Assembly (NCBI GenBank): GCA_034723415.1
Contig: JAYEOX010000135.1
Span: 1-35,410, forward strand
DNA length: 35,410 bases
Direction of reading: 5' to 3'
Origin: Fidelibacterota bacterium
GTDB lineage: Bacteria > Fidelibacterota > Fidelibacteria > Fidelibacterales > Fidelibacteraceae
The notes below the pieces were generated by a model. The model did no database searches and was not told the DNA's origin. It worked only from the letters and a program-made list of their open reading frames with translations. The translations under genes were made by a program, and so were the position numbers. How positions within the stretch are numbered: the first letter of the stretch is position 1; each line of letters opens with the position of its first letter. Shown here in pieces: positions 6,789 through 35,410 of this stretch.

Positions 6789-6870
6789 ATATTTAAATAA
6801 TTATGATATATTTTTTCTTTCATTATTGAATATTTTACAAAATTTATTTTTTAATTTCAATATTTATACT

Positions 6871-6903: not shown

Positions 6904-6924
6904 AATAATATAAAATTATTTTAT

Positions 6925-9063
6925 TTATCTACGATTTCTATCTCTATTAAAACTTTTTCTTTTATTTTCAAATCCTTCCGGTTTCTCAGTTAATCGTTTC
7001 ATACTTAATTTTAATTTCCCTTGTGGATTGGTATCAAATAATTTTACTTTTACTTTATCACCGGTTTTTAAGACATCTGTAACTTTTTCAACTCGTTCCC
7101 ATTTTAATTCTGATATATGAACCAATCCTTCAACACCAGGTAAGATTTCAACAAAAGCACCAAAATCCAAAATATTTTTTACTTCGCCTTCATAAGTTTT
7201 GCCTATTTCCGGCTCTTCAATAATCGCTAATATCATATCTTCTGCTTCTTTTGCCGCTTTACTATCGTTAGAAAATATATTTACACTTCCTTCATTTTCA
7301 TCTTGATCTATATCTATTTCAACACCGGTTTTTGCAACAATCTCCTTGATCATTTTGCCGGATGGACCAATAATTGCACCAATTTTATCTACAGGGACTT
7401 TAATTGATTTAATTCTTGGAGCATATTTATTTAACTCTTTTCTCGGTTCAATCAATGTTTCCTTCATTTTATTAAGAATATGTATTCTGCCTTCACGAGC
7501 TTGTTCCAAAGCAGCTTCCATTCTCTCAAAAGACAATCCTTTAATTTTTAAATCCATTTGAATTGCTGTAATTCCATCTTCTGTTCCGGTAACTTTAAAA
7601 TCCATATCTCCATAATGATCTTCTTCACCCAAAATATCAGATAATACTACAAACTCATCACCATCAGTAATCATTCCCATTGCTATTCCACTCACCATTT
7701 TCTTTATATTTATTCCGGCATCCATTAAGGATAGAGATCCGCCACAAACCGATGCCATTGAAGAGGAACCGTTTGATTCTAAAATATCACTAACAACACG
7801 AATTGTATAAGGAAATTTATCCTTGTGAGGAATCATATATTTCAATGCTCTTTCTGCTAAATTTCCATGTCCGATCTCTCTACGACTAACGCTGAATCTC
7901 ATTCTTGTTTCACCGGTTGCAAATGGTGGAAAATTATATTGCAACATATATTGCTTATCAGCTGAGCCATCAATGTTATCTAACATTTGTGTATCTTTAG
8001 TTGACCCTAAAGTTGTAACCACAAGTGCTTGTGTTTCACCACGAGTAAATAGTGCTGAACCGTGTGTCCTTGGTAATAATGAAACTTCCGAAGTAATTTT
8101 TCTAATTTCATTCGGTTTCCTACTATCAATTCTGATCTTATCTTTTAATATTCTTGTCCTGACTTTTTCCTTAACTCTATCATTGACAATATTTTTTATT
8201 CCCGAGCTTTTTTCTTCATAATCTTCACCATATTTCTCTTCTAATTCATCGAATATTTTTTTAGTTAATTCAACTCTTTCATTTTTATTGTCATTTTGAA
8301 TTAATTTATCGATCTTGCCTTCTGCAATTTCAAGAACTTCTTTCTTTAATTCATCATCTTCTTCGATCTCAGGTTTCTCTCTTTTTTTAGGATTAATTTC
8401 TGCGATCAATTCCTCTTGTAAATCGATTGTTTCAACTATGGAGTTATGAGCTTTTTTCATTACTTCTATGAATTCTTTTTCTGAAATTTCCTTTGCTTCT
8501 CCTTCAACCATATTTATGGAATCACGAGATCCTGCAATTATCATTTCAACATCGCCTTCTTCAATTTCATCAAACATTGGATTTACAATCAATTCCCCAT
8601 CTTTTCTTCCCATTCTTACTGTAGAAACCGGGCCGTCAAATGGAATATCAGAAATAGATAATGCAGTAGTAGCAGCGATTGCTCCTAAAATATCAGGTTG
8701 ATTTGAACCATCATAAGATAAAATACTTACCATTACCTGAGTTTCATAATACCAATTTTTTGGTAAAAGTGGTCTTATCTGTCTATCTATTAATCTTGCA
8801 CTTAAAACTTCTCTTTCCGAAGGTCTTCCCTCTCTTTTTATAAATCCACCGGGAATCTTCCCACCGGCATAAAATTTTTCTCTATAATCAACAGACAACG
8901 GAATGAAATCAGCTCCTTCTCTCATTGTCTTATTTGCTACTACAGTTGCCATTACTATTGTTTCACCTGCTTGAGCAAGAATAGCGCCATCTGCTTGTTT
9001 TGCCATTTTTCCAGTTTCAAGTGAAATCAATTTTCCATTTATCTCTTTTTGCTTTTTTATCAA
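6925..9063 (-). CDS. pnp: Polyribonucleotide nucleotidyltransferase (PNPase)
   Basis: Two RNase PH domains (RREIGHG, ESNGSSSMAS, GDMDFKV) plus KH and S1 domains. TTG start with AGGAG RBS. Confidence 0.98.
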   Translation of the reverse strand: MIKKQKEINGKLISLETGKMAKQADGAILAQAGETIVMATVVANKTMREGADFIPLSVDYREKFYAGGKIPGGFIKREGRPSEREVLSARLIDRQIRPLLPKNWYYETQVMVSILSYDGSNQPDILGAIAATTALSISDIPFDGPVSTVRMGRKDGELIVNPMFDEIEEGDVEMIIAGSRDSINMVEGEAKEISEKEFIEVMKKAHNSIVETIDLQEELIAEINPKKREKPEIEEDDELKKEVLEIAEGKIDKLIQNDNKNERVELTKKIFDELEEKYGEDYEEKSSGIKNIVNDRVKEKVRTRILKDKIRIDSRKPNEIRKITSEVSLLPRTHGSALFTRGETQALVVTTLGSTKDTQMLDNIDGSADKQYMLQYNFPPFATGETRMRFSVSRREIGHGNLAERALKYMIPHKDKFPYTIRVVSDILESNGSSSMASVCGGSLSLMDAGINIKKMVSGIAMGMITDGDEFVVLSDILGEEDHYGDMDFKVTGTEDGITAIQMDLKIKGLSFERMEAALEQAREGRIHILNKMKETLIEPRKELNKYAPRIKSIKVPVDKIGAIIGPSGKMIKEIVAKTGVEIDIDQDENEGSVNIFSNDSKAAKEAEDMILAIIEEPEIGKTYEGEVKNILDFGAFVEILPGVEGLVHISELKWERVEKVTDVLKTGDKVKVKLFDTNPQGKLKLSMKRLTEKPEGFENKRKSFNRDRNRR

Positions 9064-16698: not shown

Positions 16699-18462
16699 TT
16701 ACAAAATTAAATTTAAAATACTGCCAACAACCAATGTAGATAACATCATAATCGCTGCAGATTTTGCCATATCTTTAAGGCCTAATTCTTTTAATAACAC
16801 AGTAAATGTTGCAATACAGGGAAAATACATTGTCAATATTACAGAAGAAATTATCATCTGTTTCATAGATAATCCCAATGGAACTAACATTCCCACCGCT
16901 ACATCTTTTCTTAGAAATCCAACAATTAATGCACCAACTGTTTCCTTTGGCAACCCCATCAAACCGGTGATTATTGGACTTACTAAATTCCCCAAAAAAT
17001 CTATTACATGTAAAACATATAAAATATTTATTATTAATACACCTAACAATACATAAGGAACGGCTTCTTTTATAAACCAAACAATTCTCATCCACAATTT
17101 TTTTAATAATGATTTAAAATATGGTATTCTATAAGATGGAATTTCAGTAAATATTTCAGGACTTGTTCCCTTGACAAATTTATTCATTAGAAGACCTAAA
17201 ATGATCCAAACTATGAACAATATTCCAAAAACAATAATAATTGCTTTTACTCCATATTTACCAAGCAATCCAAAAACCATAGCGATCTGTGCCATACAAG
17301 GAACTGCAATAGCCATCAATGTACTGGCAATAAATTTTTCTCTGCGTGTTTCTAATATCCTTGTTGCCAACGCACCCGGAACATTACAACCAATTCCCAA
17401 CAACATCGGTATTATTGCTAACCCATGTATTCCCAATTTATGCATCAAATTATCAACAAGTATTCCTAAACGCGGCAAATAACCGGAATCTTCTAAGAAA
17501 CTTAAAACAAAATAAAATGCAGTTATATATGGCAGTATCATTGCAATTGGAACAAATAATCCGGTGGAAAGCATGCCCATTGAATCTAGATAACTTATCT
17601 CCCCATCTATTACTTGCCCAATCAAAATATCATGTAAAAAACCACTCCCATTAAATAATGCAGATATTTTTAGTAATACAGGTGTCCAAAAATTTTCAAA
17701 CATTGGTTCAAACAAATATGTTATTAATGATTCACCAACTAATCGAATTATTGAAAAAGATAATCCCAAAACAATAATTGCGACAATTAGACCACTCAAC
17801 GGATGAATTGACAAATCACTAAGTTTTTCACCAATTGTATGATGCTTGTGTTTTAATTTCTGAACCTGTTCAACAATTGCACCTATTTGCCCCCACTTAT
17901 TTTTTTCAATAGTATCTTTTGTAGAATTCTTGCTTAACAAATCACTTTTTTTTACATTATGTAAATTATCAACAAGATTTTTTATTCCTTCACCAGTAAT
18001 TCCACAAGTGGTTATCACAGGAACACCTAAAATATTCTCTAATTTTTCTCTATCAATACTTACACCCGTATGACCAGCTTCATCCCAAAAATTTAATACA
18101 ACTATTAAAGGAATATTTTTTTTTATCAACTCGTATGTAAGATTAAGATTCCTTTCTAAATTTGTGGAATCAATTATATTTATAAATATATTTTTATTTT
18201 TTTCTTTTATCGCTTCTTCAAAAATCTTTACTGCAACTTCTTCGGCTTTCATTGTAGGTTCAAGTGAATATATTCCGGGAATATCCACTATTTCCATTTT
18301 ATCATCACCTAATTTTAAATATCCTTTTGTATATTCTACGGTAGTTCCGTGATAATTTGATACAATTACCTTAACACCTGTTAATCTTGAGAATATAGCA
18401 CTTTTACCAACATTGGGATTACCAATCAGCATTAATTTCTTATTATTTAGTTTATCATTCAT
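16699..18462 (-). CDS. feoB: Ferrous iron transporter FeoB (short form)
   Basis: G-domain GNPNVGKS / GTTVE / DIPG / NFWD. Membrane motifs LEDSGYLPR, GIGCNVP and YFPCIAT. Confidence 0.95.
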   Translation of the reverse strand: MNDKLNNKKLMLIGNPNVGKSAIFSRLTGVKVIVSNYHGTTVEYTKGYLKLGDDKMEIVDIPGIYSLEPTMKAEEVAVKIFEEAIKEKNKNIFINIIDSTNLERNLNLTYELIKKNIPLIVVLNFWDEAGHTGVSIDREKLENILGVPVITTCGITGEGIKNLVDNLHNVKKSDLLSKNSTKDTIEKNKWGQIGAIVEQVQKLKHKHHTIGEKLSDLSIHPLSGLIVAIIVLGLSFSIIRLVGESLITYLFEPMFENFWTPVLLKISALFNGSGFLHDILIGQVIDGEISYLDSMGMLSTGLFVPIAMILPYITAFYFVLSFLEDSGYLPRLGILVDNLMHKLGIHGLAIIPMLLGIGCNVPGALATRILETRREKFIASTLMAIAVPCMAQIAMVFGLLGKYGVKAIIIVFGILFIVWIILGLLMNKFVKGTSPEIFTEIPSYRIPYFKSLLKKLWMRIVWFIKEAVPYVLLGVLIINILYVLHVIDFLGNLVSPIITGLMGLPKETVGALIVGFLRKDVAVGMLVPLGLSMKQMIISSVILTMYFPCIATFTVLLKELGLKDMAKSAAIMMLSTLVVGSILNLIL

Positions 18463-18497
18463 AAAGCATATCTAAGTAAAGATCTTTTAATTTGTTT

Positions 18498-18722
18498 TTA
18501 TAATTCTTCCACAATGATTTTTTCTGCCATACCAATACCTAATGCAAAATCTGTATTTCCAATTTTTATTGTAATTGGGCCATTCATAAATTGTGCTGAT
18601 CTTTTCTCTACCAGTGATCCTACTCTCATCCCTAATGCTTCTGCTCTTTTTTTAAACATTATACCACCAGCCAATTTAATTATTCTAACTTTTTTACCAA
18701 TCTTTATTTCTTTTAAATTCAT
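18498..18722 (-). CDS. feoA: FeoA family protein
   Basis: 74 aa with LGMRVGS, GPITIKIG and FALGIGMAEKI. Directly upstream of feoB. Confidence 0.92.
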   Translation of the reverse strand: MNLKEIKIGKKVRIIKLAGGIMFKKRAEALGMRVGSLVEKRSAQFMNGPITIKIGNTDFALGIGMAEKIIVEEL

Positions 18723-18854
18723 AATATCAATCCATTTTTAATTATCTGTAAAGTTAATATAATTATTATTAATTTACAACTATAAAAACGTATATTAAAA
18801 TCAACTCAAAGACATATTTTCTATTAAAATCAAAATTAGTCAAGTTATTTTTAA

Positions 18855-19016
18855 CTTGTAACGGGAAAATTTGTAGAGAAATTAGTTAATGAGAATAAAG
18901 AAGCCGGTTCATATTCTGTGAAGTGGAATGCATCACAATTTAGTTCGGGAATATATTTATACAAAATCCAAGCAAATGAATTTACCGATGTAAACAAATG
19001 TATTCTTTTAAAATAA
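18855..19016 (+). pseudogene. Orphan remnant of a T9SS/Por-type C-terminal sorting domain
   Basis: Translates LVTGKFVEKLVNENKEAGSYSVKWNASQFSSGIYLYKIQANEFTDVNKCILLK*. There is an in-frame stop at 18852 and no start codon. Confidence 0.8.
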
Positions 19017-19120
19017 CTGTCATCTCCTGTTTTTGCAATAGAACATCCAATTTAAAGATTAGATATAATAACTTTTTTGCTAAAAAATAATCCGAATTCG
19101 GAAATTTATTGCCAATATAA

Positions 19121-19212
19121 AAAATCCTGAAGGGATTAAATATAAATAACTGCAGGCGCCAGCCTGTAGAATAAATGACCACACAACAACAAAACTCCGT
19201 AGGAGTTTAACT
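19121..19212 (+). repeat. Three-hairpin REP-like element, copy 1
   Basis: Hairpins AATCCT-GAA-GGGATT, CTGCAGGC-GCCA-GCCTGTAG and AACTCC-GTA-GGAGTT. Confidence 0.75.
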
Positions 19213-19270
19213 ATTATAATTGTCTAATCGTTAGTGAAAATTTTTAATAAAATGAAAAAATATTTATTAC

Positions 19271-19364
19271 AATTTAACTTCTTTGAAGTTGGAATAGTTT
19301 CCATACATTCGTTTTCTACCGATTCCATCGGCAGTTATTAAAATTAATCAACTTCGTTGATTTT
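19271..19364 (-). repeat. Three-hairpin REP-like element, copy 2 (inverted)
   Basis: Reverse complement gives AATCAAC-GAA-GTTGATT, CTGCCGAT-GGA-ATCGGTAG and AACTTC-AAA-GAAGTT. Shares the AATAACTGC and GTAGAA flanks with copy 1. Confidence 0.75.
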
Positions 19365-19550
19365 CATTTTTTGTTTAACGACTTTGTAAGGAACCCCTTA
19401 TTGCATAAAAAAATGTAATAAGTAAAGTTCAATTGACAGAAAATAATTAGCAATTATTTATAAAAATAAATCTTTCATTTTATTAATATTTTTCTTAAAT
19501 TTAGTGATTTAAAAAAAAAGGAAAAAATGAAAAATAAAAAAGGAGAAAAA

Positions 19551-20927
19551 ATGAAAAATTATGATGTGATTATTATTGGCGGCGGCCCATCAGGAATTAT
19601 TGCCGGAGTAACAGGAAAAAAACAAAATGTTGATAAAAGTTTTTTGATGATAAAAGAAGAGGCAAAAGGATTAATCCCATGTGGAATTCCATACATTTTT
19701 CATGATTTAAATGATGTCTCTAAAGATGCAATGGGTCCTAAACCATTTATAGATGCAGGTGGAGATGTTTTGATTGATAAAGTTATCAATATAGATATCA
19801 CAGAAAAAACTTTAAAAACACAAAATAATGACGAATTCAAATATGAAAAATTAGTTTTCGCAACCGGTTCAACACCAACTATTCCCACTTTTATAAAAGG
19901 AAATGATTTGGAAGGTGTAGAATTCATAAAAAAAAGCTATGATTATATTGAAAAACTAAAAAATGAAACTGACGAAGCAAAAAATATTGTGATAGTTGGT
20001 GGAGGATTTATTGGTGTTGAGGTAGCTGAACAGCTTTCCAAATTTAAAGATAAGAATATATCATTAGTAGAAATGGAAGAATTTTGTCTCTATCGTGCAT
20101 TTTCCAAAGATATCGCAAAAAAAGTAGATGAAATTTTACAAAACACAGAGATTAATTTACTAACAAACAATAAAATCGAAGAAATTATTGGTAAAAACGG
20201 TAAAGTAACAAAAGTAAAATTAGTCAATGGGAAAGAAATTGATGCAGATCTTGTAATTTTCTCAATTGGATACAAACCAAATACAGAATTAGCAAAAAAA
20301 TCCGGTTTGGAAATAACAAGTCAAGGAACAATCCGATGTGATAATTATCTCAGAACAAACAAAAAAGATATTTATGCAATAGGTGATTGCAGCCAAACAA
20401 TTGGTTTTATTACAGGAAGAACAGATAATATTATGCTCGCTTCTACGGCTACATCAGAATCAAGAATTTTAGGATATAACTTATTTGAAATAAATCTTAT
20501 TAGAAACTTTATTGGAACATTATCTGTATTTTCTACCGAAATTGGCGGAACGACATTTGCATCAGTTGGAGCAATTGAACAAGAAGCAAAAGCACATAAT
20601 ATTAATTATATTATCGGAAAATTTGAAGATGTAGATAGACATCCGGGAACAATCAAAGATGCAAATAAATTAATGATAAAACTAATCGTATCACCTAAAA
20701 CAGGTAAAATAATCGGTGGTGAACTTTACGGTGGAAAATCAGCTGGTGAAATTATTAATATATTAAGTTTAGCAATTCAAAAAGAAACTACAGTATATGA
20801 ATTAACCTCTCTTCAATTTGGAACTCATCCACTTCTTACTACGGCTCCAACAAAATATGTACTTATTAAAGCAGCTGAAATGGCTATTCTAAACATTAAA
20901 AAAAAGAACTATAAACTAAATCAATAA
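19551..20927 (+). CDS. FAD-dependent NADH oxidase / CoA-disulfide reductase family oxidoreductase
   Basis: GGGPSG FAD motif, single-Cys PCGIPY, ATGS, GGGFIGVE, YAIGD and C-terminal HP. Start at 19551 after AAGGAG. Confidence 0.88.
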   Translation: MKNYDVIIIGGGPSGIIAGVTGKKQNVDKSFLMIKEEAKGLIPCGIPYIFHDLNDVSKDAMGPKPFIDAGGDVLIDKVINIDITEKTLKTQNNDEFKYEKLVFATGSTPTIPTFIKGNDLEGVEFIKKSYDYIEKLKNETDEAKNIVIVGGGFIGVEVAEQLSKFKDKNISLVEMEEFCLYRAFSKDIAKKVDEILQNTEINLLTNNKIEEIIGKNGKVTKVKLVNGKEIDADLVIFSIGYKPNTELAKKSGLEITSQGTIRCDNYLRTNKKDIYAIGDCSQTIGFITGRTDNIMLASTATSESRILGYNLFEINLIRNFIGTLSVFSTEIGGTTFASVGAIEQEAKAHNINYIIGKFEDVDRHPGTIKDANKLMIKLIVSPKTGKIIGGELYGGKSAGEIINILSLAIQKETTVYELTSLQFGTHPLLTTAPTKYVLIKAAEMAILNIKKKNYKLNQ

Positions 20928-20943
20928 TTAATAAGGAGAAAAA

Positions 20944-21972
20944 TTGCAGCAAATAATCCATGTGTTTAAACATGCATTAATGATAACAGGATTCGTTTTT
21001 ACGATGATGTTAATTATTGAATATATTAATGTTCAAACACATGGGTTATGGCAAAGAAATATCTCTAAAAGTATTTGGAAACAATATTTATTGGCAGCTT
21101 TGTTGGGAGCTATTCCCGGATGTTTGGGTGCTTTCACAGCAGTTGCACTTTTTACTCATCGGCTAATTTCACTCGGTGCATTAGTGACGGCAATGATAGC
21201 TACAAGCGGCGATGAAGCATTTGTTATGTTATCAATGTTTCCACAAAAAGCAATTATTTTGACATTTATAATTGTTGTAATAGGAATTTTAGCAGGATTT
21301 ATAACAGACAAACTGCCTTTTTCAAAATCATTTAAGAATAGTTTAAAATCAAACAAATTACCATTGCACAAAGAAGAAAAATGTAAATGCTTACCACAAA
21401 ACCATTTCTTTGAAAATATGAAAACTCCTTCTACACAACGAATTTTGTTGATCGTTATTGTATCGATATTTTTATTAGGTACAGTTATTGGAGAAATTGG
21501 TCCTCAAAAATGGAATTGGATTAAGATCACGATTCTAATTACCTCATTTTTATCACTTTTCATAATTGTTACAGTCCCGGAACATTTTTTGAAAGAGCAT
21601 CTTTGGAATCATATTGTAAAAATTCACATTCCGAGAATATTTTTATGGATATTTGGAACCCTTCTTACAATTCATATTCTCATGCAATTTATTGATGTTC
21701 AATCTTGGATCGCGGGTAATTTGTACTTAGTTCTTTTTATTGCACTTGTTGTTGGTATTATTCCTGAATCCGGTCCGCATTTAATGTTTTTAACATTATT
21801 TGCAAACGGAACAATCCCATTTAGTATTCTACTTGCAAGCTCAATCGTTCAAGATGGACATGGAATGTTACCTCTACTTGCAGAATCAAAAAAGGGATTT
21901 TTTACGGTAAAAGCAATAAATATTGTTTTTGGAGCAGCAGTTGGATTTATTGGTTTATTATTAGGATTTTGA
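20944..21972 (+). CDS. Putative heavy-metal (Mn/As) permease, DUF2899-like
   Basis: Multi-TM protein with GAIPGCLG, ATSGDEAF, IPESGPH and QDGHGMLPLL motifs. TTG start with AAGGAG. Confidence 0.7.
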   Translation: MQQIIHVFKHALMITGFVFTMMLIIEYINVQTHGLWQRNISKSIWKQYLLAALLGAIPGCLGAFTAVALFTHRLISLGALVTAMIATSGDEAFVMLSMFPQKAIILTFIIVVIGILAGFITDKLPFSKSFKNSLKSNKLPLHKEEKCKCLPQNHFFENMKTPSTQRILLIVIVSIFLLGTVIGEIGPQKWNWIKITILITSFLSLFIIVTVPEHFLKEHLWNHIVKIHIPRIFLWIFGTLLTIHILMQFIDVQSWIAGNLYLVLFIALVVGIIPESGPHLMFLTLFANGTIPFSILLASSIVQDGHGMLPLLAESKKGFFTVKAINIVFGAAVGFIGLLLGF

Positions 21973-22164
21973 TCATTAGCAACGAACAAAAAAATAAATT
22001 ATTTAGCAACTAACAAAAAACTAACTAAATCGAACAAAAATTAACTAAAAAATTGAAATTATAACCATCAAGAATACGAAGAATAGTGAGAAATTAACCG
22101 GACTTAAGAATAGCTAATAAAAATACGGCACAAACTATAAATTAATTCTCGGGTATCATTACTT

Positions 22165-23352
22165 ATGAACAAAAATAAAAAATTCCAATCATCAAATGCA
22201 ATAACAATTTCTTTCGCACATTTTACTCATGATCTTTATACATCTTTTTTGGCACCGATGCTTCCTTTGTTAATTAATAAATTTGGAATAAGTCTATCAA
22301 TGGCAGGATTTTTAGATGTTGCTCGAAAATTTCCCGCATTATTTAATCCGTTTATTGGAGTAATGGCGGATAAAACTTCAATTAGATATTTTGTGATTTT
22401 TACTCCGCTAATTACAGGAATTGCAATGAGTTTGCTCGGTGTCGCTCCATCTTATTCCGTTATATTAATTTTACTTTTTGTCGTTGGGATCAGTTCAGCG
22501 GTTTTTCATATTCCCTCGCCTGTAATGATAAAAAATGTATCCGGAAATAAAACGGGAAAGGGAATGAGTTATTTCATGCTTGGTGGAGAAATTGCCAGAA
22601 CTCTCGGTCCACTTTTAATAACCGCATCAATTACGATTTGGGGATTAGAAGGATCTTATAAAGTTATGTTATTGGCTTTCATTTCAACAATATTCTTATA
22701 TATTAAACTGAAAGATATTGAAGTAAACAAAAGTTATAAGAAAAAAAATATAGAATTTAGTCCAAAAGATACATTTAAAAAATTAATCCCTTTTTTTATT
22801 ATAATTACCGGGATTGCTTTATTCCGATCCTCCATGAAAGCCGCTATAACTTTATACTTACCAACTTTTCTCACAAGCAACGGAAAATCTTTATGGCTTG
22901 CAGGAATATCACTCTCTATTCTTCAACTTTCCGGTGCAGTTGGAACATTCTTAGCCGGATCAATTTCAGATAAAATAGGACGAAAATACACTTTGCTAAT
23001 TACTGCAATTGCCAATCCAATTCTTATGTGGGCTTTCATCATTTTAAATGATAGTTTTATGATCCCTATTTTAATTTTAATTGGATTTTTTCTATTTGCT
23101 TCAGGACCGGTTTTGCTTGCTTTAGTTCATGATACGGATTCGGAACATCCCGCTTTTGTAAATAGTATTTATATGACAATCAATTTTGTCATGAGTTCAT
23201 TGATGGTTTTGTTAGTTGGTTTCCTCGGAGATAAAATTGGGTTAATTTATACATATAAAATTTGTGCAATATTGGCAGCCGGTTCAATTCCGTTTATTTT
23301 GTTTTTGCCGAAAAGCATAAAACAAAAACATAAAAGAGTATCATCGAATTAA
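22165..23352 (+). CDS. MFS transporter (Fsr/fosmidomycin-resistance-like)
   Basis: About 12 TM segments, N-terminal HFTHDLY, SAVFHIP and motif A GSISDKIGRK. Confidence 0.85.
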   Translation: MNKNKKFQSSNAITISFAHFTHDLYTSFLAPMLPLLINKFGISLSMAGFLDVARKFPALFNPFIGVMADKTSIRYFVIFTPLITGIAMSLLGVAPSYSVILILLFVVGISSAVFHIPSPVMIKNVSGNKTGKGMSYFMLGGEIARTLGPLLITASITIWGLEGSYKVMLLAFISTIFLYIKLKDIEVNKSYKKKNIEFSPKDTFKKLIPFFIIITGIALFRSSMKAAITLYLPTFLTSNGKSLWLAGISLSILQLSGAVGTFLAGSISDKIGRKYTLLITAIANPILMWAFIILNDSFMIPILILIGFFLFASGPVLLALVHDTDSEHPAFVNSIYMTINFVMSSLMVLLVGFLGDKIGLIYTYKICAILAAGSIPFILFLPKSIKQKHKRVSSN

Positions 23353-26452: not shown

Positions 26453-27742
26453 ATGAAAAAATTTGTTTTTTTGGTTTTGATTTTAACTTTGGCATTAGTT
26501 GCTGAAGATGAAAATGTAAAAACAGGTTGGAGTTTTGGTGGTGTTCCGGCTGTTGCTTATGACACCGATACGGGTTTTAAATATGGAGCTTTAGCTAATA
26601 TTTATAATTATGGAGACGGTTCAACATACCCTGAATATTTATATTCAATTTATGTTGAATGGTCACGAACAACTAAAGGAAGTGGTGTTAATGAAATATT
26701 TTTTGATTCAAAACACTTACTGCCTAAAGGGATAAGAGTAACAGCAGATCTTTCATATCTTACAGAACAAACACTTGACTTTTACGGATTCAACGGATAT
26801 GAAGCAAAATTTAACTCTGATCTTATTGACGATGATAGTAACAATCCGGATTATATCTCTCGTGTTTATTATAAACATCAAAGAGAATTATTAAAAATTA
26901 CAAGTGATTTTCAAGGACATTTATATAAAAATAATTTATTATGGGTTGGTGGGTTCGGCCATTTTGGAACTGATATTAGTTCAGTCGATATCGATAAATT
27001 AAATGAAGGAACTGACGAAGACGATATGCTGCCGGATACAACTACATTATTTGATGAATATAAAGATAACAATATAATTCCTCAAGATCAAGAAGATGGT
27101 GGTAATACAAATTTTTTAAAATTGGGATTGGTATATGATTCACGCGATAATCAGGCAAATCCGATGCATGGTATTTGGACGGAATTACTTTTTATTACTG
27201 CTCCCGATTTTTTAGGGAATGATTATTCCTATTCACAAATGGTATTTACACATCGACAATATTTTACTATTCTTCCTAAGAAATTATCTTTTGCATATCG
27301 TTTAAGTTATCAAGGAAAACTCACAGGTGAAATGCCATTTTATATGTTGCCTTATATTTTCAGTTCTTATAAAACCGTTGACGGATTAGGTGGGAAGAAA
27401 TCCATTAGAGGAACTTTACGAAATCGTATAATGAGCGACGGATTTGCTTATGGAAATGTTGAATTACGATGGAAATTTTTACGCACTGTTGTATTTGGTC
27501 AAAATTTATATTTGGCAGTAAATCCATTTGTTGATATGGGAATGACTGTAAATAGATATGATGCAAATTATGATGAAGTTAGTAACATAACAGAACAAAA
27601 TGATGAATTACATATTGGCTATGGAATAGGATTGAAAATTGCGTTAAATGAAAATTTTATTATTTCTGTGGATTACGGAATAGCAAAAGACGAACGTGAC
27701 GGAGACAGCGGATTATATATTGGCTTAGATTTTCTGTTTTAA
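26453..27742 (+). CDS. Omp85/BamA-TamA family outer-membrane beta-barrel protein without POTRA domains
   Basis: Signal peptide, YDSRDN, LGGKKSIRG (L6-loop VRG-like) and terminal LDFLF. Confidence 0.82.
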   Translation: MKKFVFLVLILTLALVAEDENVKTGWSFGGVPAVAYDTDTGFKYGALANIYNYGDGSTYPEYLYSIYVEWSRTTKGSGVNEIFFDSKHLLPKGIRVTADLSYLTEQTLDFYGFNGYEAKFNSDLIDDDSNNPDYISRVYYKHQRELLKITSDFQGHLYKNNLLWVGGFGHFGTDISSVDIDKLNEGTDEDDMLPDTTTLFDEYKDNNIIPQDQEDGGNTNFLKLGLVYDSRDNQANPMHGIWTELLFITAPDFLGNDYSYSQMVFTHRQYFTILPKKLSFAYRLSYQGKLTGEMPFYMLPYIFSSYKTVDGLGGKKSIRGTLRNRIMSDGFAYGNVELRWKFLRTVVFGQNLYLAVNPFVDMGMTVNRYDANYDEVSNITEQNDELHIGYGIGLKIALNENFIISVDYGIAKDERDGDSGLYIGLDFLF

Positions 27743-27762
27743 TAATAAAATTTAATATTTTT

Positions 27763-27796
27763 AAAAGCCATATTTTGATAATATGGCTTTTTTTTT
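27763..27796 (+). terminator. Rho-independent terminator
   Basis: AAAAGCCATATT-TTGAT-AATATGGCTTTT followed by a T tract, 20 bp after the Omp85 stop. Confidence 0.85.
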
Positions 27797-27956
27797 GATA
27801 ATTTTGTCTGTAGAATTCAGTGGAGAAAAAAATCAAAATGTTTAGAGTATTGTTTTAATACTTGAAACTTCTCAATAAAATTACTTTTCAAAAAAAATCT
27901 TTGTTTATTTAATTTTTATTATTAAATTGCAATAGTTTTTAAGATGAGAGTAATTA

Positions 27957-28742
27957 ATGAGCGCAAAAATGGAAAATGGAGTGAGATATAAATACAGAGC
28001 GGCTACTCTATTGCCGTATGGTTATTTAGAAAGATTAGATCAAAAGCGATATAGTAAGAACACAATCAATATATATACTGCATATTTCAAAGATTTTGTT
28101 AATGAATTTAGAAATCAGAAACTTTCAACATTGTCAAAGAATAGTATTAATGCTTATATTCTAAAACTAATAAAACAAAATAATATTTCTACATCACAAC
28201 AAAACCAGAGAATCAATGCTATCAAATTTTATTATGAAAAAGTACTTGGAAGAGAAAAGTAATATTATCAGGTTTACCGGCCAAGGAAAGAAAAAAAGTT
28301 ACCGATTGTATTAAGTGAGGATGAGATTATTAACATTATATGTCAAATAGAAAATTTAAAACATAAGTCAATAATATCATTAATATATTCAGCAGGATTT
28401 AGAATCAGCGAAACAATTAATTTGAAACTTACTGATATAGATTCAAAAAGAAATCTCATAACCATTAAAAGTGGAAAAGGGAAAAAAGATCGGATAACCC
28501 TACTATCAGAGACCGTTTTAGAACTCTTAAGAGAATATTATAGCAAGTATAAACCAGATAGCTATCTTTTTCAGGGGCAAAACGGTGGTAAATATTCAGT
28601 AAAAAGTATACAAAATATCTTCAATAAAGCTCTGAAAAAGTCAGGTGTAAAAAAAGAAGCGACAGTTCACACATTGAGACATAGTTTTGCAACTCATTTA
28701 TTAGAGCATGGTACAGATCTAAGGTATATTCAGGAATTATTA
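27957..28742 (+). pseudogene. Integron-like tyrosine recombinase, N-terminal and core part (inactivated)
   Basis: ORFs 27957..28262 and 28422.. are in one frame, split by a single TAA at 28260. Readthrough gives RPRKEKKLPIVLS, YSAGFRISE, GKGKKDR and HTLRHSFATHLLE..IQELL, where homology stops. Confidence 0.9.
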
Positions 28743-29030
28743 TCAGAAAATATAAATATAAGAATTATTGATCTTTATTCTATAAAACCAATTAATAAAG
28801 ATAAATTATTAGAATCTATAAAAGGAATAGATAATATAATAACAGTAGAAGATCATTATCCAGCAGGAGGATTAGGAGAATCTGTAGAATCAGTTTTGTT
28901 TTGCGAGAATAAAAATATTTTTAAAATGGCTGTAGAAAAAATACCAAGAAGCAGTAGTAAAAAAGAGGTTTTAAGTTACGAAAATATATCCAAAAAAGAA
29001 ATTGTTAACAAGGTAGAAAAGATATTATAG
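28743..29030 (+). pseudogene. Transketolase C-terminal fragment fused in frame to the recombinase
   Basis: NIRIIDLYSIKPI and ITVEDHYPAGGLGESV are Transketolase_C signatures. Confidence 0.85.
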
Positions 29031-29033
29031 ATT

Positions 29034-29273
29034 ATGTCAAAAGATTTTAGAACAATTAAAATTTATTGCGAAAAGTGTAATACCCTTTTATACGAATATC
29101 ACAAATATGGTTCTGGTCATTTGGTAAAATGTTTTGTTAATCAAATTAAAAAAGATTATACTAATAAAGAAACGATATGTCCTAATTGCCAGGAAAAGAT
29201 TGCTAGAAAAAGACAATTTCAAGGCAGAGATATTTATAAAATTATTCAAGGTAAGGTTTATGTAAAAAAATAA
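29034..29273 (+). CDS. Small hypothetical protein with two CxxC motifs (putative zinc ribbon)
   Basis: 79 aa with CEKC and CPNC. Starts 3 nt after the transketolase stop. Confidence 0.7.
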   Translation: MSKDFRTIKIYCEKCNTLLYEYHKYGSGHLVKCFVNQIKKDYTNKETICPNCQEKIARKRQFQGRDIYKIIQGKVYVKK

Positions 29274-29299
29274 GAATATTTATTAAATTTAGTATTATA

Positions 29300-29359
29300 A
29301 AAATAGGCATTAATAAAATCATCAGTCCCTTAGATAACTTAAATATAAGGAAAAAATAA
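29300..29359 (+). pseudogene. Detached C-terminal tail of the integron-like recombinase
   Basis: Translates KIGINKIISPLDNLNIRKK*. The 'I.SPLD' tail is typical of integron-type integrases. Confidence 0.75.
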
Positions 29360-29430
29360 ACGAAATACGTCGTATATACAACACCTGTTAGAAAAACAAA
29401 CGAAGTATATCGTATATACAAACGTTAGGC
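29358..29430 (+). other. Putative attI-like recombination site (tandem direct repeat)
   Basis: Two related units: AAACGAAATACGTCGTATATACAACACCT-GTTAGAA and AAACGAAGTATATCGTATATACAAAC-GTTAGGC. The second GTTRRRY core starts the first cassette. Confidence 0.7.
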
Positions 29431-30389
29431 GAAATTTCAGAAGAGGTTATATCAAATGAAAAGTAGAGAGCTTAAATATAGAATAAACTGGCAAGATACA
29501 TGGAAGAAAATGAGGAGCGAGAGAATTAGAAAACTCACAGTAACGTATGACAGGGATTTCCAAATAAAATCTAACGAAGATTTTTCAAATCGTTATAAGT
29601 GGAATGATTACGAATCTGGAAGAAAAGCGGTAAATATATTAGGAGATATTTTAAATAAAGATGCCGAAGTTCTTGAAATCGGTCCTGGTCCCGGAACTTT
29701 AACAGTTCCCCTTTCTGAAAAAGTTAGAAAAATCACTTGTGTAGAGGCTTCAAAGACAAATTTAGAGATCTTAAAGAAAAATTTGAAGGAAAACGGGATT
29801 AAAAACTACGAACTGATAAATGACTATTGGGAAGTAACTAAAATTGGAGATAGGTTTGATTTGGTCGTATGCTCACATTTTCTTTGGCAGGTTGAAGATA
29901 TTGAGGAACATTTGAAAAAAATGGAAAACGCTTCAAAAAAATATTGTGCAGTGATACAACCCTGTGGAAGAGATGAAGTAGTTAAGAAGGCTTTTGAAGA
30001 GATTTGTAAAGAGAGATACACAGGACAATTTGAAGCGGATGCAGAGTATTTTCCTTATGTAATTTTAAGGGAATGGTCAAGATGTTTAGATGTTCGCCAC
30101 TTCGAATATTCCTTTGAACTTAATCTTGAGGAAGGTATTAGGTACATAGCAAGTTACTTGGGAAAATTCATAGACGTTAATGAACAAGTCGCAGATAAGA
30201 TAAAGAGGTTTTTAATAGCCGAAGTGGGCAAACATTGGGTGATAAGAGATAACGCAATTGTTATGTGGTGGAAACCAGGAAAATGAGAGGAACAAAACTT
30301 CGCCTAACAACGGATATGAAGTTTCACTCCCGTTGATTGTTTCACTCAAATTGTTCCCTTCAGTCGCAACTTTTCATATCCGCAAACCG
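29424..30389 (+). mobile_element. Gene cassette 1
   Basis: Starts GTTAGGCGAAAT, and ACTTCGCCTAAC near its end is the reverse complement at 11/12 positions. Contains a single ORF with only a short leader. Confidence 0.85.
29456..30286 (+). CDS. Class I SAM-dependent methyltransferase (cassette cargo)
   Basis: VLEIGPGPG motif I, CVEAS and FDLVVCSH. AGAGG RBS. Confidence 0.88.
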   Translation: MKSRELKYRINWQDTWKKMRSERIRKLTVTYDRDFQIKSNEDFSNRYKWNDYESGRKAVNILGDILNKDAEVLEIGPGPGTLTVPLSEKVRKITCVEASKTNLEILKKNLKENGIKNYELINDYWEVTKIGDRFDLVVCSHFLWQVEDIEEHLKKMENASKKYCAVIQPCGRDEVVKKAFEEICKERYTGQFEADAEYFPYVILREWSRCLDVRHFEYSFELNLEEGIRYIASYLGKFIDVNEQVADKIKRFLIAEVGKHWVIRDNAIVMWWKPGK

Positions 30390-30395
30390 TTAGGT
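30302..30395 (+). other. attC-like site
   Basis: R'' GCCTAAC (30302), inner arm CGGATATGAA pairing with TTCATATCCG, and R' GTTAGGT (30389). 94 bp long, 15 bp after the stop codon. Confidence 0.85.
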
Positions 30396-30477
30396 GAAAT
30401 CGTGAACTATAGGAGTATTAGAAAAATCTATAAAGGCTGGCATAATAAAATAACAATAAGTTAAATGAGGTTATAAA

Positions 30478-31569
30478 ATGAAAAAAATTGGTTTAATAGT
30501 AAATCCTATAGCAGGAATGGGTGGTAGTGTCGGATTAAAAGGGACTGATGGAGAGGCTTACAAAAAGGCATTGGAATTAGGGGCGAAACCAACCACTCCG
30601 CAAAGAATTGAAGAAACACTTTCTTTGGTTAACAGGAAAGATCTTTATTTTATAGTTGCACCCGGTAAAATGGGTGAAAATTTTATTAAAAAATTCGATT
30701 TTAAGTATGAAATAGTATCTAAAATAGGTAAGGAAACAAATGCGGATGATACTAAAAAAATTATTCGTGAGATGGTTGAAAAAGCTATTGATCTTCTGAT
30801 TTTTGTTGGCGGTGATGGCACCGCAAGAGATGTGTACGATATTCTGGGATTAAAAATTCCGGTCGTGGGAATTCCTTCGGGAGTTAAAATGTTCAGTCCT
30901 ATTTTTGCTCTTTCAACTTTTGCTGCTGCAGAAATTATCAATAATGAATCTAAACAACTTATTGAAAAAGAAGTTCTTGATATTGACGAAGAAGCTTTCA
31001 GAGAAGGAAAATTGGGAGCTAAATTATACGGATATTTAAAAGTTCCCAAAAATCCAAACCTATTGCAAGGCAAAAAAGAATCTTCTAATGTTAGTAAACC
31101 GGAAAAAATCAGTAAAGAAGAAATTGCACAATATATTTTTGAAAAAATTGAAAACGATGTGCTTTACATTTTAGGACCCGGAACTACTTTGGAAACTATT
31201 GCCAATAAAATTGGTGTAGAGAAAAGTTTATTAGGCATAGATGCTGTTTGTAACGGAAAATTAGTAGGAAGAGATCTTAACGAAAAAAATTTGATGGATT
31301 TAATTGAAAAATATGATAAAATAAAAATCATTGTTACACCCATTGGTGGGAATGGTTTTATTTTTGGAAGAGCAAGTAAACAATTCACACCGAAAGTCTT
31401 AAAATTAATTGGGAAAGAAAATGTAATTGTTGTTGCAACTGAAGATAAAATCAGTAGATTGGAATGTCTTAGAGTTGATACTGGAGATACTGAAACAGAT
31501 AACAATTTAAAAGGACATTTTAAAGTAATTACCGGATATAAAACAGAAACAATTATTGAAGTAAAATGA
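30478..31569 (+). CDS. ATP-NAD kinase family protein (COG3199-like)
   Basis: NPIAGMGG..GLKGTDG, GGDGTARD, GIPSGVKMFS, GPGTT, GFIFGR and LRVDTGD motifs. Confidence 0.85.
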   Translation: MKKIGLIVNPIAGMGGSVGLKGTDGEAYKKALELGAKPTTPQRIEETLSLVNRKDLYFIVAPGKMGENFIKKFDFKYEIVSKIGKETNADDTKKIIREMVEKAIDLLIFVGGDGTARDVYDILGLKIPVVGIPSGVKMFSPIFALSTFAAAEIINNESKQLIEKEVLDIDEEAFREGKLGAKLYGYLKVPKNPNLLQGKKESSNVSKPEKISKEEIAQYIFEKIENDVLYILGPGTTLETIANKIGVEKSLLGIDAVCNGKLVGRDLNEKNLMDLIEKYDKIKIIVTPIGGNGFIFGRASKQFTPKVLKLIGKENVIVVATEDKISRLECLRVDTGDTETDNNLKGHFKVITGYKTETIIEVK

Positions 31570-32543
31570 TGTTAAAATTTCACATGAATGAAAATCCTTA
31601 TTCACCGGCCAAAAGCATTCAAAAAGCAGCAATAAAAGGATTGGAAAAAATAAACAGATATTCTGAGACAAAATATCTAAATGAATTAAAAAAACTTTTG
31701 GGAACTTATAATAATTTATCTTCCGATCGAGTTGTTTTAAGTCATGGTTCGGATTTGTTATTAAGGGAAATAATCAATATTTTCTCAAAAGATAGGAAAA
31801 TAATTATGGTGAACCCGTCATTTTTCCCCATTGCACAATATGCTTTAAAGCAAGCCAGTAGATTAACAAGAATTCAGATTTCACCTCCTGATTTTAAATT
31901 AGATACTAATCTTTTATTAAACGAGTTGAATGAACCAACACTGTTTATTATTGATAATCCTAATAATCCTACAGGTAAAACTTTGATTGATAATAGCTTC
32001 GCCGAAAAAATCCTTCAAAATAAAAATGCATTACTATTGGTAGATGAGGCATATTATGAATTTTCAGGACAAACTTTTGCAGGACTGATTAAAAAATATC
32101 CCAATCTTGCAATAACAAGAACCATGGATAAGGCTTTTTCATTGGCAGGACTTCGATTGGGTTACCTGTTAATGGGGGATTATTTTAAAAATCATTTTTC
32201 GAACTTCCCGGCTTATCTTTCTATTCCCACTCTCTTTGCTGCGATTGAAGCATTAAAAAGGCCTGAATATATGACAGCAAATGTGAATAAAATCTTGAAT
32301 GAAAAAATAAAAGTAGAAAAAGAACTATTAAAAACAGGAATTAAGGTTTTCTCCGGAAAGACGAATTTCATTTTAATAAAGTCAAAAATTTCTGATTTTG
32401 GTAAAAAACTTATTGATAAAGAAGTTATTATTCGAAATTTGTCTGATGAATGGATATATGGTTATTATCGAATTACTATTGGACTACCCGAAGAAAATAA
32501 TATATTATTATCAGCAATTAAAAAAATATATGACGATGCCTAA
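31566..32543 (+). CDS. PLP-dependent class I/II aminotransferase (HisC/CobD-like)
   Basis: NENPY, NPNNPTG, VDEAYYEF, RTMDKAFSLAGLRLGY and RITIG motifs. ATGA overlap with the upstream gene. Confidence 0.88.
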   Translation: MMLKFHMNENPYSPAKSIQKAAIKGLEKINRYSETKYLNELKKLLGTYNNLSSDRVVLSHGSDLLLREIINIFSKDRKIIMVNPSFFPIAQYALKQASRLTRIQISPPDFKLDTNLLLNELNEPTLFIIDNPNNPTGKTLIDNSFAEKILQNKNALLLVDEAYYEFSGQTFAGLIKKYPNLAITRTMDKAFSLAGLRLGYLLMGDYFKNHFSNFPAYLSIPTLFAAIEALKRPEYMTANVNKILNEKIKVEKELLKTGIKVFSGKTNFILIKSKISDFGKKLIDKEVIIRNLSDEWIYGYYRITIGLPEENNILLSAIKKIYDDA

Positions 32544-32622
32544 AACAGGTAATTTTAACCAACATGCCTATAAATACGATAATTGGTTTGATGGTATTGG
32601 TGGTTATTTAACTGGATTTTAA
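32536..32622 (+). pseudogene. 5' stub of a probable SAM-dependent methyltransferase
   Basis: MPKTGNFNQHAYKYDNWFD resembles the F...A..YD.WF N-terminus of class I methyltransferases. It overlaps the aminotransferase stop and then degenerates. Confidence 0.5.
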
Positions 32623-32698
32623 CATCAAATAAACATCGTAGTAAATTGAAAATTAATCGTTTCAAAATCCCAAACTACGCATAGCCCAACCGTTAATT
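32599..32698 (+). other. 3' half of a degenerate attC-like site
   Basis: Ends ...ACTACGCATAGCCCAACC-GTTAATT, parallel to ...TTCATATCCGCAAACC-GTTAGGT in the intact site. No matching 5' arm is present. Confidence 0.55.
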
Positions 32699-32769
32699 AA
32701 GAAATTATTTATGACTCTAAATCCAATAATTCTTTACTCTATTGGATATTTACAAATTGGTAATAAAAA

Positions 32770-34893
32770 TTACTTTTTCAATCCTAAAATTTTCAACATA
32801 AAAGCATATTCAAGAGCATACTCTTTATAAACTTCAAATCTACCTGATGCTCCACCGTGACCATAATCCATATTTGTTTTTATCAGCAACAGATTATCGT
32901 CGGTTTTTAAATCTCGCAATTTTGCTACCCATTTTGCCGGTTCCCAATATTGAACTTGTGAATCGTGTAATCCGGTTGTAACTAACATATTGGGATATTC
33001 TTTCGCTTCAACATTATCATAAGGTGAATATGACAACATGTAATCGTAATATTTTTTAACATTTGGATTTCCCCATTCATCATATTCTCCTGTTGTTAGT
33101 GGAATACTTTCATCCAACATTGTTGTAACAACATCGACAAATGGAACTTGAGCAATAATTCCCGTATATAAATCAGGTGCCATATTTGAAATAGCTCCAA
33201 CTAATAAGCCACCGGCACTTCCACCCATTGCGAATACTTTTTCAGGTGAAGCATATTTTTCATTTAATAAATATTTTGTGCAATCAATAAAATCATAAAA
33301 AGTATTTTTCTTTTTCAACAATTTCCCATCTTCATACCATTTTCTTCCCATCTCCTGACCGCCACGAATATGAGCAATTGCATAGACAAATCCTCTATCT
33401 AATAAACTTAACCGAACAGTACTAAAATATGCCGGCATACTATTTCCATAAGAACCATAGCCATAAATCAAAAGTGGTGATTTCCCATTTTTCTTGAATC
33501 CTTTTTTATAAACTATAGAAATTGGAACTTTTGTACAATCACGAACGGTAGCAAATATTCGCTCAGTTTGGTAATCATTTTTATCAAAATCTCCAAGAAC
33601 TTCTTCCTCTTTCATTAATTTTTTCTCTTTTGTTATCATATTATAATCATAAATTGAACTTGGAGTAGTCATAGATTCGTATCCATATCGCAAAATATCT
33701 GTATCGCCTTCAGGATTAGTTGAAATCCATAAAGTATAAGGTGATTCTTTAATATCCATTGTGTATTTTTCATCATTTTTGAAATCTATAATTTTTAAAT
33801 ATGGCAAAGCATTTTTAAATTCTTTTACAACTAAATAATTGTTAAATAATTCAAAATCACTTATTAACACATTTTCCCTCGCTGGAATTATATCTTTCCA
33901 ATATTTTTGAGATAAATGATCAATATCTGTTCTGACAATTTTAAAATTCTTTGCATTTTTATTTGTTCTGATATAAAAATATTTGCCAATATGATCAATG
34001 CTATATTCAAGATCTTTTTGTCTCGATTGAAACATTTTTAATTTTCCATCAGGAGTATTTGCATCTAAAATATGATATTCAGCAGATAAAGTTGATTCAG
34101 AACAAAATAGAATATATTTTTGTGATTTGCTCTTAGAAACCGTATGATAAAATGTATTTTCTTTTTCTTCATAAACGATTTTATCGTCTTTTACATTATT
34201 TCCTAAAATATGTTTAACCGTTTTATAAGGACGCAGTGTTTCATCTTTTACATTATAAAAAATTGTTTTGTTGTCATTCGCCCAAACAATATTTCCTGAA
34301 GTATTTGGAATATTATCTCTTAACAATTCACCTGTTCCTAAATCTTTAAATTTTATTGTATATTTTCTTCTACTTAATGTGTCAACCGAATATGCAATAA
34401 TTTTATTGTCCGGACTTACACTAAAATCTGCAATATGAAAATAAGAAAATCCTTTTGCCATTTCATTTTCATTCAATAAAACTTCTTCTTTACTGTCTAA
34501 GTTTTCTTTTTTTCGACAATAAATTGGATGTTCATTCCCTTTTTCATATCTGGAATAATAAAAATATCCATTAAATTTATACGGCACAGATTCATCTTCT
34601 TGTTTGATCCTATTTACCATTTCATTATAAAGTTTTTTCTGCAATTTTTTAGTATCTTTCATCATTGCATCAGTATATTTATTTTCATTTTCCAAATATT
34701 TAATTACCTTTGGATTTTCTCTATCATTTAGCCAATAATAATTATCAATTCTCGTATCATTATGAATTGTGAATTCTTTTTTAATTTTTTCTGCTTTTGG
34801 TGGTGTCATTTTTGATTCCTCTGATTTTTCGCAACTTGCAATAACAAATAGTAAAGTTATTAATCCAATTATTATTTTCGTTACTTGTTTCAT
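32770..34893 (-). CDS. ptrB: Oligopeptidase B (S9A), probable lipoprotein
   Basis: DNYYWL, HIRGGQEMG, catalytic GGSAGG, HDSQV and GHGGASGR. Start at 34893 with an IAS-C lipobox. Confidence 0.95.
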   Translation of the reverse strand: MKQVTKIIIGLITLLFVIASCEKSEESKMTPPKAEKIKKEFTIHNDTRIDNYYWLNDRENPKVIKYLENENKYTDAMMKDTKKLQKKLYNEMVNRIKQEDESVPYKFNGYFYYSRYEKGNEHPIYCRKKENLDSKEEVLLNENEMAKGFSYFHIADFSVSPDNKIIAYSVDTLSRRKYTIKFKDLGTGELLRDNIPNTSGNIVWANDNKTIFYNVKDETLRPYKTVKHILGNNVKDDKIVYEEKENTFYHTVSKSKSQKYILFCSESTLSAEYHILDANTPDGKLKMFQSRQKDLEYSIDHIGKYFYIRTNKNAKNFKIVRTDIDHLSQKYWKDIIPARENVLISDFELFNNYLVVKEFKNALPYLKIIDFKNDEKYTMDIKESPYTLWISTNPEGDTDILRYGYESMTTPSSIYDYNMITKEKKLMKEEEVLGDFDKNDYQTERIFATVRDCTKVPISIVYKKGFKKNGKSPLLIYGYGSYGNSMPAYFSTVRLSLLDRGFVYAIAHIRGGQEMGRKWYEDGKLLKKKNTFYDFIDCTKYLLNEKYASPEKVFAMGGSAGGLLVGAISNMAPDLYTGIIAQVPFVDVVTTMLDESIPLTTGEYDEWGNPNVKKYYDYMLSYSPYDNVEAKEYPNMLVTTGLHDSQVQYWEPAKWVAKLRDLKTDDNLLLIKTNMDYGHGGASGRFEVYKEYALEYAFMLKILGLKK

Positions 34894-35284
34894 TTTAATT
34901 CTCCCATTGAATTGTTTGTAATTAACTATATTAATAATATAGAGCAAAATATTTACTTATACAAATAGAGAATTATTATTATTTTTAATGATTTTTTAAC
35001 TATTTAATAAGGAATAACTATACTATTTAATAAATTTAAAACTTCACAGTAGTTATAATTTTAAAGAAAAAATACTATGGTGGTCTAATGATTGAAATTG
35101 GAATTAAATATTATTATTGATGGCTTTTTTATTGTTTAAAATTTATTACTCTGAACTTCACAAATAGTCATTTGTTATTCGTGGAAATTATTCTCTAATT
35201 TTTAAACCGTTAAAACGGTTATTAAATTCCCTCACCGGGTTCACTTTTCACTGAATCCTATATTTTTATTATTTAGTTTTAAAT

Positions 35285-35410
35285 TTATTTATAAATAGAT
35301 AAAATCGAAGTTGGTGAATGTGTTTGAACATCAGGAGTTTGTTCACGATCCAACATTCCAGCAGTTTCTGACACATTAGATTTGATATAACTTTCTAATT
35401 CCTGTATTGT
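35285..35410 (-). CDS. 3' end of a probable caspase-like (peptidase C14) protein, partial
   Basis: Open frame TIQELESYIKSNVSETAGMLDREQTPDVQTHSPTSILSIYK*. EL..YI...V and QTP match the end of caspase-family domains. Confidence 0.55.
   Translation of the reverse strand, partial: TIQELESYIKSNVSETAGMLDREQTPDVQTHSPTSILSIYK

Follow-up and report, generated by a model that had tools for sequence, protein, structure and literature searches.

Introduction

The closest described system to the locus analysed here is rAID-1, in which a XerD-family recombinase gene is followed by co-oriented genes and by repeats 'reminiscent of integrons', and which was reported in 226 of 423 Bacteroidales genomes (Ross et al. 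2019, 10.1101/471110). A 2025 follow-up still called its biogenesis undefined (PMC12247911). The accessible parts of these two papers describe no hairpin, crossover point or mechanism, and no description of how the rAID-like family recombines was found in the literature, subscription papers lying mostly outside the search. The present work concerns an island of ~5 kb (positions 27805..32769) in a 35,410-nucleotide stretch of DNA from a Fidelibacterota bacterium (contig JAYEOX010000135.1; the whole stretch is referred to as the window), in which a tyrosine recombinase gene precedes an attI-like site, co-oriented genes and attC-like sites. This system is integron-like in its working, falls outside the integrons when judged by IntI, and represents a variant of the rAID-1 type from a host that is not one of the Bacteroidales. 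A sequence-only reading of the window had proposed a distinct gene-capture platform; that stands at the level of the recombinase family, while the copy in the window is dead and the architecture had already been published as rAID-1 (10.1101/471110).

Integron integrases are recognised by their I2 insertion, which is taken as the defining criterion, and tools reject recombinases that lack it. No cassette arrays are assigned to the insertion-less members of the 'integron-like' tyrosine recombinase subgroup in the accessible text of Smyshlyaev et al. (PMC8138268). Were this family to capture cassettes, a large gene-capture system would have been missed in lineages thought poor in integrons, a concrete and testable model would be at hand for rAID biogenesis, called open in 2025 (PMC12247911), and there would be a candidate route by which tet(X3) left its source. 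That I2 and, apparently, flipped-out bases are both lacking would also open the origin of integron recombination to testing. The window copy contributes a documented enzyme death, an empty site and a traceable cassette.

An inserted island with a dead recombinase gene

The genome in question (G000, of which the window is contig C135) measures 1.94 Mb, is 94% complete and has a GC content of 30%. The island is flanked by the gene for an outer-membrane protein on one side and that for an oligopeptidase on the other. Its parts, all on the + strand as had been read from the letters, are the recombinase gene with the attI-like site behind it, then a methyltransferase gene followed by a hairpin of 94 bp, and finally the paired kinase and aminotransferase genes and a second att-like site. 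In a genome of the same genus (G004) the two flanks are ~25 nt apart, and its alignment with the window stops at 27804 and picks up again at 32770. With the two flanking genes all but adjoining in G004, 27805-32769 is an insertion, and G004 carries the empty site.

The recombinase gene is a double pseudogene. Its 5′ part (27957..28742, + strand; Phage_int_SAM_4 and Phage_integrase domains) is broken by a TAA stop at 28260-28262 (codon 102), and its own coding sequence ends (...IQELL) at 28742, where transketolase sequence begins. The foreign insert (28743..29291, + strand, ~550 bp, Patescibacteria-like) holds a C-terminal transketolase fragment (28743-29033, + strand; PF02780) and an open reading frame (ORF) for a Patescibacteria-like, zinc-ribbon-like protein of 79 aa (29034-29273, + strand). 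The named relatives of these two pieces are Patescibacteria proteins (79% and 65% identity), and two further transketolases outscore them. The 3′-end of the recombinase gene survives at 29292..29359 (+ strand), with the original stop at 29357-29359, and the DNA alignment continues from there through the attI-like site. The final 19 codons are kept (29300-29359), the last 11 residues being identical to the C-terminus of the intact recombinase of genome G011, which is 69% identical to the window protein. In the comparison with G011, ~13 codons are missing, among them the ones encoding the second catalytic His and the nucleophilic Tyr. As the gene's final 19 codons and its stop are still there, the ~550 bp of foreign sequence took the place of these ~13 codons. 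With an internal stop and the His and Tyr codons replaced, the window copy of the platform is dead and unable to drive recombination.

No intact copy of the gene was found in the 94%-complete G000 assembly, which holds, besides the window gene, two short C-terminal stubs on contig C43 and separate genes for XerC and XerD, both 28-29% identical to the window recombinase. The window gene, patchy across the lineage and situated within an island, is not a housekeeping XerC/XerD/XerA orthologue. C-terminal stubs of the same family recur alone, both on C43 (2-106 and 2265-2402) and in an island of genome G010 (L176).

So odd a recombinase-transketolase fusion might reflect an assembly chimera, or the locus a chance arrangement, and assemblies of four other brine-metagenome runs, all from one study, add a point in that direction: all four lack 14 bp at 30392-30405 (the second junction). 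Single contigs from two of those runs nevertheless bridge the junctions between recombinase and insert (X2, 27910-29308; X4, 27887-29884), a chimeric recombinase-transketolase protein 96% identical to this one is present in the protein database (P0164), and G004 has the empty site. On the evidence of the bridging contigs and the chimeric protein, an assembly error in the fusion is rejected, and a chimeric or fortuitous origin of the locus is very improbable. The TAA stop is present in contigs of three of the four runs, where every mismatch is explained by the differences listed; in the fourth, the contig covering it carries one unlisted mismatch. The 14 bases at 30392-30405, which resemble a cassette start directly after the GTT of the hairpin, could be the stub of a cassette lost here, or could have been deleted in the populations of the other runs.

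The recombinase lacks the IntI insertion

The absence of the IntI-specific insertion, which the sequence-only reading had pointed out, was confirmed in several ways. The catalytic Arg motif is separated from H-x-x-R by 91 residues, compared with 133 in L075, the sole IntI-type protein among the loci compared. Alignment with VchIntIA (2a3v) is split into two segments (query 5-111 with chain 94-201, and query 116-159 with chain 247-290), so that chain residues 202-246 are skipped and an insertion of ~40 residues is absent. The window protein matches TIGR02249 in two pieces, below the 265-bit cut-off, and thus does not score as a normal IntI. Its intact homologues reach 243 and 210 bits with the same model, again as two separate segments. 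With NF040815, a model for XerA-type proteins of archaea, they score 229-238 bits, above its cut-off of 220.

The structure predicted for the intact G011 protein (pLDDT 91) is closest to XerA (Z 24.0, root-mean-square deviation 14.4 over 255 residues) and VchIntIA (2a3v; Z 23.8, 3.0 over 267 residues), which are tied. A quick tree placed the window protein and the recombinase of P. distasonis locus L167 in one 8-row group (support 92, not starred); having no bootstrap and a single canonical IntI on a long branch, the tree is silent on the family being ancestral to IntI. Integrases from a phage collection were distant (best rows 34-35% identity). The recombinase of G031, a genome of the same phylum, is a close match to that of L005, a Neomarinimicrobiota record. 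Loci such as L050-L055 are IS91-linked. Most of the close homologues (P0015-P0163) are 350-730 aa long, with N-terminal extensions that have no counterpart in the ~280-aa form considered here.

The attI-like site and the cassettes

The attI-like primary site (29358..29430, + strand) comprises two direct repeats 40 bp apart and ends at a G/TT crossover (29424/29425). Direct repeats are also found in classical attI sites. Its position directly after the recombinase stop, as originally read, is correct for the original stop, the gene itself being the double pseudogene described above. An attI profile built without the window finds the window site (E 0.001), and the same layout follows intact homologues, tied to the stop codon of this recombinase family across genomes. 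Among ten relatives' recombinase copies (53-75% identity), seven are followed by such a site; in four of the ten the contig breaks off no more than 1 nt from the GTT of attI, which a variable first cassette would lead one to expect. A local duplication as the source of the 40-bp repeat was rejected because intact relatives carry the repeat. A looser pattern (GTT ≤160 nt from the stop) was dropped in favour of alignments, being seen in 13 of 32 close and 15 of 45 distant homologues and giving no separation. The location of attI at the 3′-end of a co-oriented recombinase gene had been regarded as distinguishing; the layout is there, but it is reported also for canonical IntI in archaea (PMC9668308) and for an inverted-integrase group (PMC4889954).

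Cassette 1 (29425..30389, + strand, 965 bp) carries a gene for a class I S-adenosylmethionine methyltransferase (29456-30286; Pfam). Its ends, GTTAGGC (29424-29430) and GCCTAAC (30302-30308), are complementary in seven of seven bases, as had been noticed. The methyltransferase was compared in all seven loci containing it (L137-L143). In L137-L139, near-identical contigs that count as one case, its ends are unchanged whereas the inside of the hairpin and the neighbours are not the same, i.e. the cassette is mobile with fixed ends. It follows another hairpin in L143, where the left end only is matched; in L140 it is a plain operon gene, and L141 has its 3′ half only.

The next cargo (30478..32543, + strand) consists of two genes, one for an ATP-NAD-kinase-family protein (30478-31569) and one for a HisC/CobD-like aminotransferase (31566-32543). 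This unit is not a clean cassette, since its ends are not complementary. Of 150 other genomes in the phylum, two have the kinase; in each it adjoins the aminotransferase, and no hairpin site was found around the pair. The pair is treated here as decayed or otherwise captured cargo.

Two families of hairpin sites

The cassette is closed by an attC-like hairpin of 94 bp (30302..30395, + strand) belonging to a short family. It has an AAC/GTT core and an unbroken 10-bp stem, with a 2-versus-6-nt spacer and no extrahelical base. The sequence-only reading had called it a full attC-like hairpin, and a covariance model built without the window site (R1) scored it at 76.7 bits, the next-best match in the window being 15.4 bits. 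R1 derives from 11 other members of the short family, some of which were picked up through their resemblance to the window site, making the score held-out and not independent; as three core pairs of the model are off by one column and its 11-pair stem is right, the 76.7 bits rest on sequence and stem. The folding energy gives a modest signal (bottom strand z -2.6, top strand z -2.1). Members of this family also lie downstream of the insertion-less recombinase genes of L009 and L062. In its stem, 8 of 11 pairs have changed on both sides, with 33 covarying cells compared with 12 in shuffles and 3-9 in slid controls. Of 32 sites examined for strand bias, 30 fold more stably as the bottom strand.

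The second site (32557..32698, + strand), previously taken for a half attC, proved to be a full-length 142-bp site of a different, long (~130-bp) hairpin family, with a decayed left arm. It scores 33.8 bits with the long-family model R2, and its folding shows no signal (z +0.4). The MAFFT/RNAalifold structure of the family misregisters the first stem, and R2 is mostly a sequence model. Five intact copies are found elsewhere in G000, and intact relatives in L149, L151 and L152; R2 found no match in L165, L167, L142 or L075. In the metagenome runs the site is a community repeat at about 4-10 times the contig depth, whose continuations diverge right after GTT(A) (32694/32695; runs X2 and X4).

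An enzyme without I2 that passes NF040815, acting on stems without an extrahelical base, could also move the same cassettes by ordinary double-stranded Xer/Cre-type recombination, the palindromes serving only as inverted binding sites. However, the arms vary yet stay paired, lie 80-190 bp apart across variable loops, and favour one strand, which argues that structure rather than sequence is conserved. We therefore regard the double-stranded alternative as unlikely. Exchange of a folded strand needs neither I2 nor extrahelical bases, since XerCD recombine the folded CTX phage strand without either (PMC4792948).

Cassette arrays in relatives, and the source of the integrase

The family's homologues were expected, on the earlier reading, to carry att sites and variable cassette arrays. 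They do, though not all: attI in the 7 of 10 copies mentioned above, and hairpins in 12 of 32 loci. The clearest case is G007 (one contig, 95% complete), which has an intact recombinase, an attI and at least five hairpin-bounded units. In this single-contig genome no TIGR02249 match extends over the insertion region, i.e. it bears an array and has no IntI. Its cargo, with Abi_alpha, SIR2 and AAA+HNH domains, is phage-defence-like. Hairpin clusters also occur in G007 far from its sole recombinase copy (C1 1104788-1107423, 1135637-1139731 and 1832344-1839646).

Across 12 array regions, 27 of 29 pairs of neighbouring sites match, where a match means that four or more of the five bases following GTT are complementary to the left core of the next site (mean 4.59, compared with 2.43 when shuffled; none of 10000 shuffles was as high). 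Complementary ends and palindromic closing sites, as in integrons, are thus found in cassette 1 and in these 27 pairs. A hairpin census covered 80 loci; the recombinase stop was in view in 77, of which 32 had ≥50% identity and 45 were more distant. The 32 close loci yielded 26 co-oriented hairpins in 129,853 bp downstream, from 12 loci (two of the 26, at offset 0, are doubtful), and two downstream hairpins on the other strand. Upstream, both strands together gave five in 164,407 bp. The 45 distant loci yielded four downstream co-oriented hairpins, three of them in one insertion-less array. The Pirellulaceae locus L056 (114-3652) has the classical divergent layout: its recombinase, insertion-less and extended at length at the C-terminus, has six hairpins upstream of it on the other strand, all with unbroken stems and with cassette ends that match.

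These cassettes might instead be divergent attC cassettes moved in trans by a canonical IntI (as in CALIN elements), the short recombinase being a neighbour or passenger. Several attI-headed cassettes of G000 have no adjacent recombinase, and two loci, G010 and L142, contain canonical components (see below). No IntI over the TIGR02249 cut-off was found, however, in any of four genomes (G000, G007, G010 and G011), attI keeps a set position relative to the stop codon of these recombinase genes across genomes, and the site geometry is unlike the canonical one with extrahelical bases. Service by an IntI elsewhere is accordingly doubtful, and slightly less probable than the double-stranded alternative.

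Attachment sites without a recombinase gene were located in G000 at C4:1085-1143, C66:3066-3142, C118:444-503, C59:16898-16957 and C47:~4080, the last on the basis of the motif only. Those on C4 and C66 head complete cassettes with perfectly complementary ends. This suggests that recombinase-less attI sites are satellite platforms served in trans.

Comparison with known systems

As in rAID-1, a 5′ XerD-like recombinase gene precedes co-oriented genes, its stop is immediately followed by a motif, and repeats lie between the genes. Membership in rAID-1 is defined by >44% identity to B. fragilis BF9343_RS08045, for which the recombinase of the rAID-like L167 locus (a P. distasonis immunity-gene array) was used as a stand-in; it is 50% identical to the window protein over 246 residues and has the same spacing of 91. 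The window has three co-oriented downstream genes at 29-35% GC, where rAID-1 asks for at least two at ≤41%, but low cargo GC is uninformative here since the genome itself has 30% GC. A motif does occur after the stop and between genes, and its family differs from that of L167. In contrast with rAID-1, the host lies outside the Bacteroidales and the cargo is not one of orphan immunity genes: it is metabolic (methyltransferase, kinase and aminotransferase), or defence-like in G007. The sites also differ, being 80-190 bp long here with a GTT core and an unbroken stem, whereas those of L167 are ~51 bp long and have ATT as their core, and the best fit for each (7/7) is a stem with one bulged base at position 9-11.

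Classical integrons share with this system the AAC...GTT cores, the G/TT crossover, complementary cassette ends, a bottom-strand folding bias, an attI with direct repeats beside the integrase, and the fold of the recombinase. They differ in the ~40-residue insertion, absent here together with a TIGR02249 score above the cut-off, and in the geometry of their sites: the arm offset is +2 to +4 in this system, apparently with no flipped-out base in the first stem.

TnpF, or 'tyrosine-type recombinase', encoded upstream of tet(X3) on Acinetobacter plasmids and on pHH1107, is 59% identical to the window protein and is likewise followed by an attI-like GTT site, then by tet(X3) and the left arm of a long-family hairpin. 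Unlike the window locus, it is plasmid-borne, has a shorter N-terminus, and its hairpin is cut short; the long-family model did not score this hairpin, the resemblance being judged by eye. In L165:5052-7200 (Acinetobacter plasmid), tet(X3) stands between the attI-like site of TnpF and the long-family left arm. XerCD acting on CTX phage resembles the system in that a folded strand is recombined without I2.

A proposed mechanism

We consider it likely that the island represents a platform for cassette capture, integron-like in type and now inactivated, that belongs to the rAID-1/TnpF recombinase family and worked on folded strands. Intact copies encode a ~280-aa tyrosine recombinase without I2, directly upstream of its own attI, which would act as double-stranded DNA. 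Judging from the anatomy, circular gene cassettes would enter at G/TT, where the enzyme would join attI to the bottom strand of the cassette hairpin in its folded form, through one strand exchange followed by replicative resolution. The strand would probably be chosen through the asymmetric 2-4-nt spacer bulge and G-T wobbles, and not through flipped-out bases. The methyltransferase cassette would have been the last captured at the window locus; later, the nonsense change and the foreign DNA over the catalytic His and Tyr codons would have destroyed the enzyme, freezing the locus.

Several observations weigh against this proposal. No recombination assay for the family was found in the literature searched, and Cury et al. 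dismissed insertion-less recombinases near attC (PMC4889954). Three of the ten relatives (G001, G031 and G035) have no attI, and 20 of the 32 close loci have no hairpin, many of their contigs being short. No extrahelical base is seen in the window hairpin or in the sites of the long family, but the finder accepts unbroken stems only, and three canonical attC control sites scored poorly in the extrahelical-base test. From the sites compared, the family does not seem to be built on one site design. Both the covariation and the complementarity statistics are inflated by related sequences. An island in G010 contains a canonical IntI fragment alongside these sites, and in L142 the methyltransferase belongs to a two-gene cassette between canonical-looking attC sites, a setting that would also suit an IntI acting in trans. 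These L142 sites (4468-7921) flank a methyltransferase plus MFS cassette, and the next position, also after a canonical-looking attC, is occupied by an insertion-less recombinase gene that is interrupted by an ORF resembling a transposase. Canonical and insertion-less systems may thus share cargo, and the recombinase may travel as a cassette.

Taken more broadly, and with only a slight leaning in its favour, these loci could represent a second widespread class of integrons, with an I2-less integrase and folded single-stranded sites marked by an asymmetric bulge. rAID-1 would be its gut branch; it would have supplied tet(X3) as a first cassette, would trade cargo with canonical integrons, and would spread recombinase-less attI satellites served in trans. 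It would be either an intermediate between Xer and IntI or a parallel invention.

Other features of the window

The region upstream of the recombinase gene (27876..27960, + strand) may act as a promoter. A copy 91% identical by blastn is present on contig C59, where it runs straight into the attI-like site with no recombinase gene between; matches to a promoter-like consensus, which would include a Pc promoter for the cassettes, are not above chance (19, compared with 15.1 ± 4.0 in shuffles). An Rfam scan of 27000-35410 gave two weak, irrelevant matches and nothing else. Outside the island, a block at 16699-23352 lies between housekeeping regions; by eye, its genes were named as FeoB/FeoA-like iron uptake, an FAD oxidoreductase-like protein, a membrane protein and an MFS-like transporter, and it includes a long ORF-poor gap at ~18740-19530.

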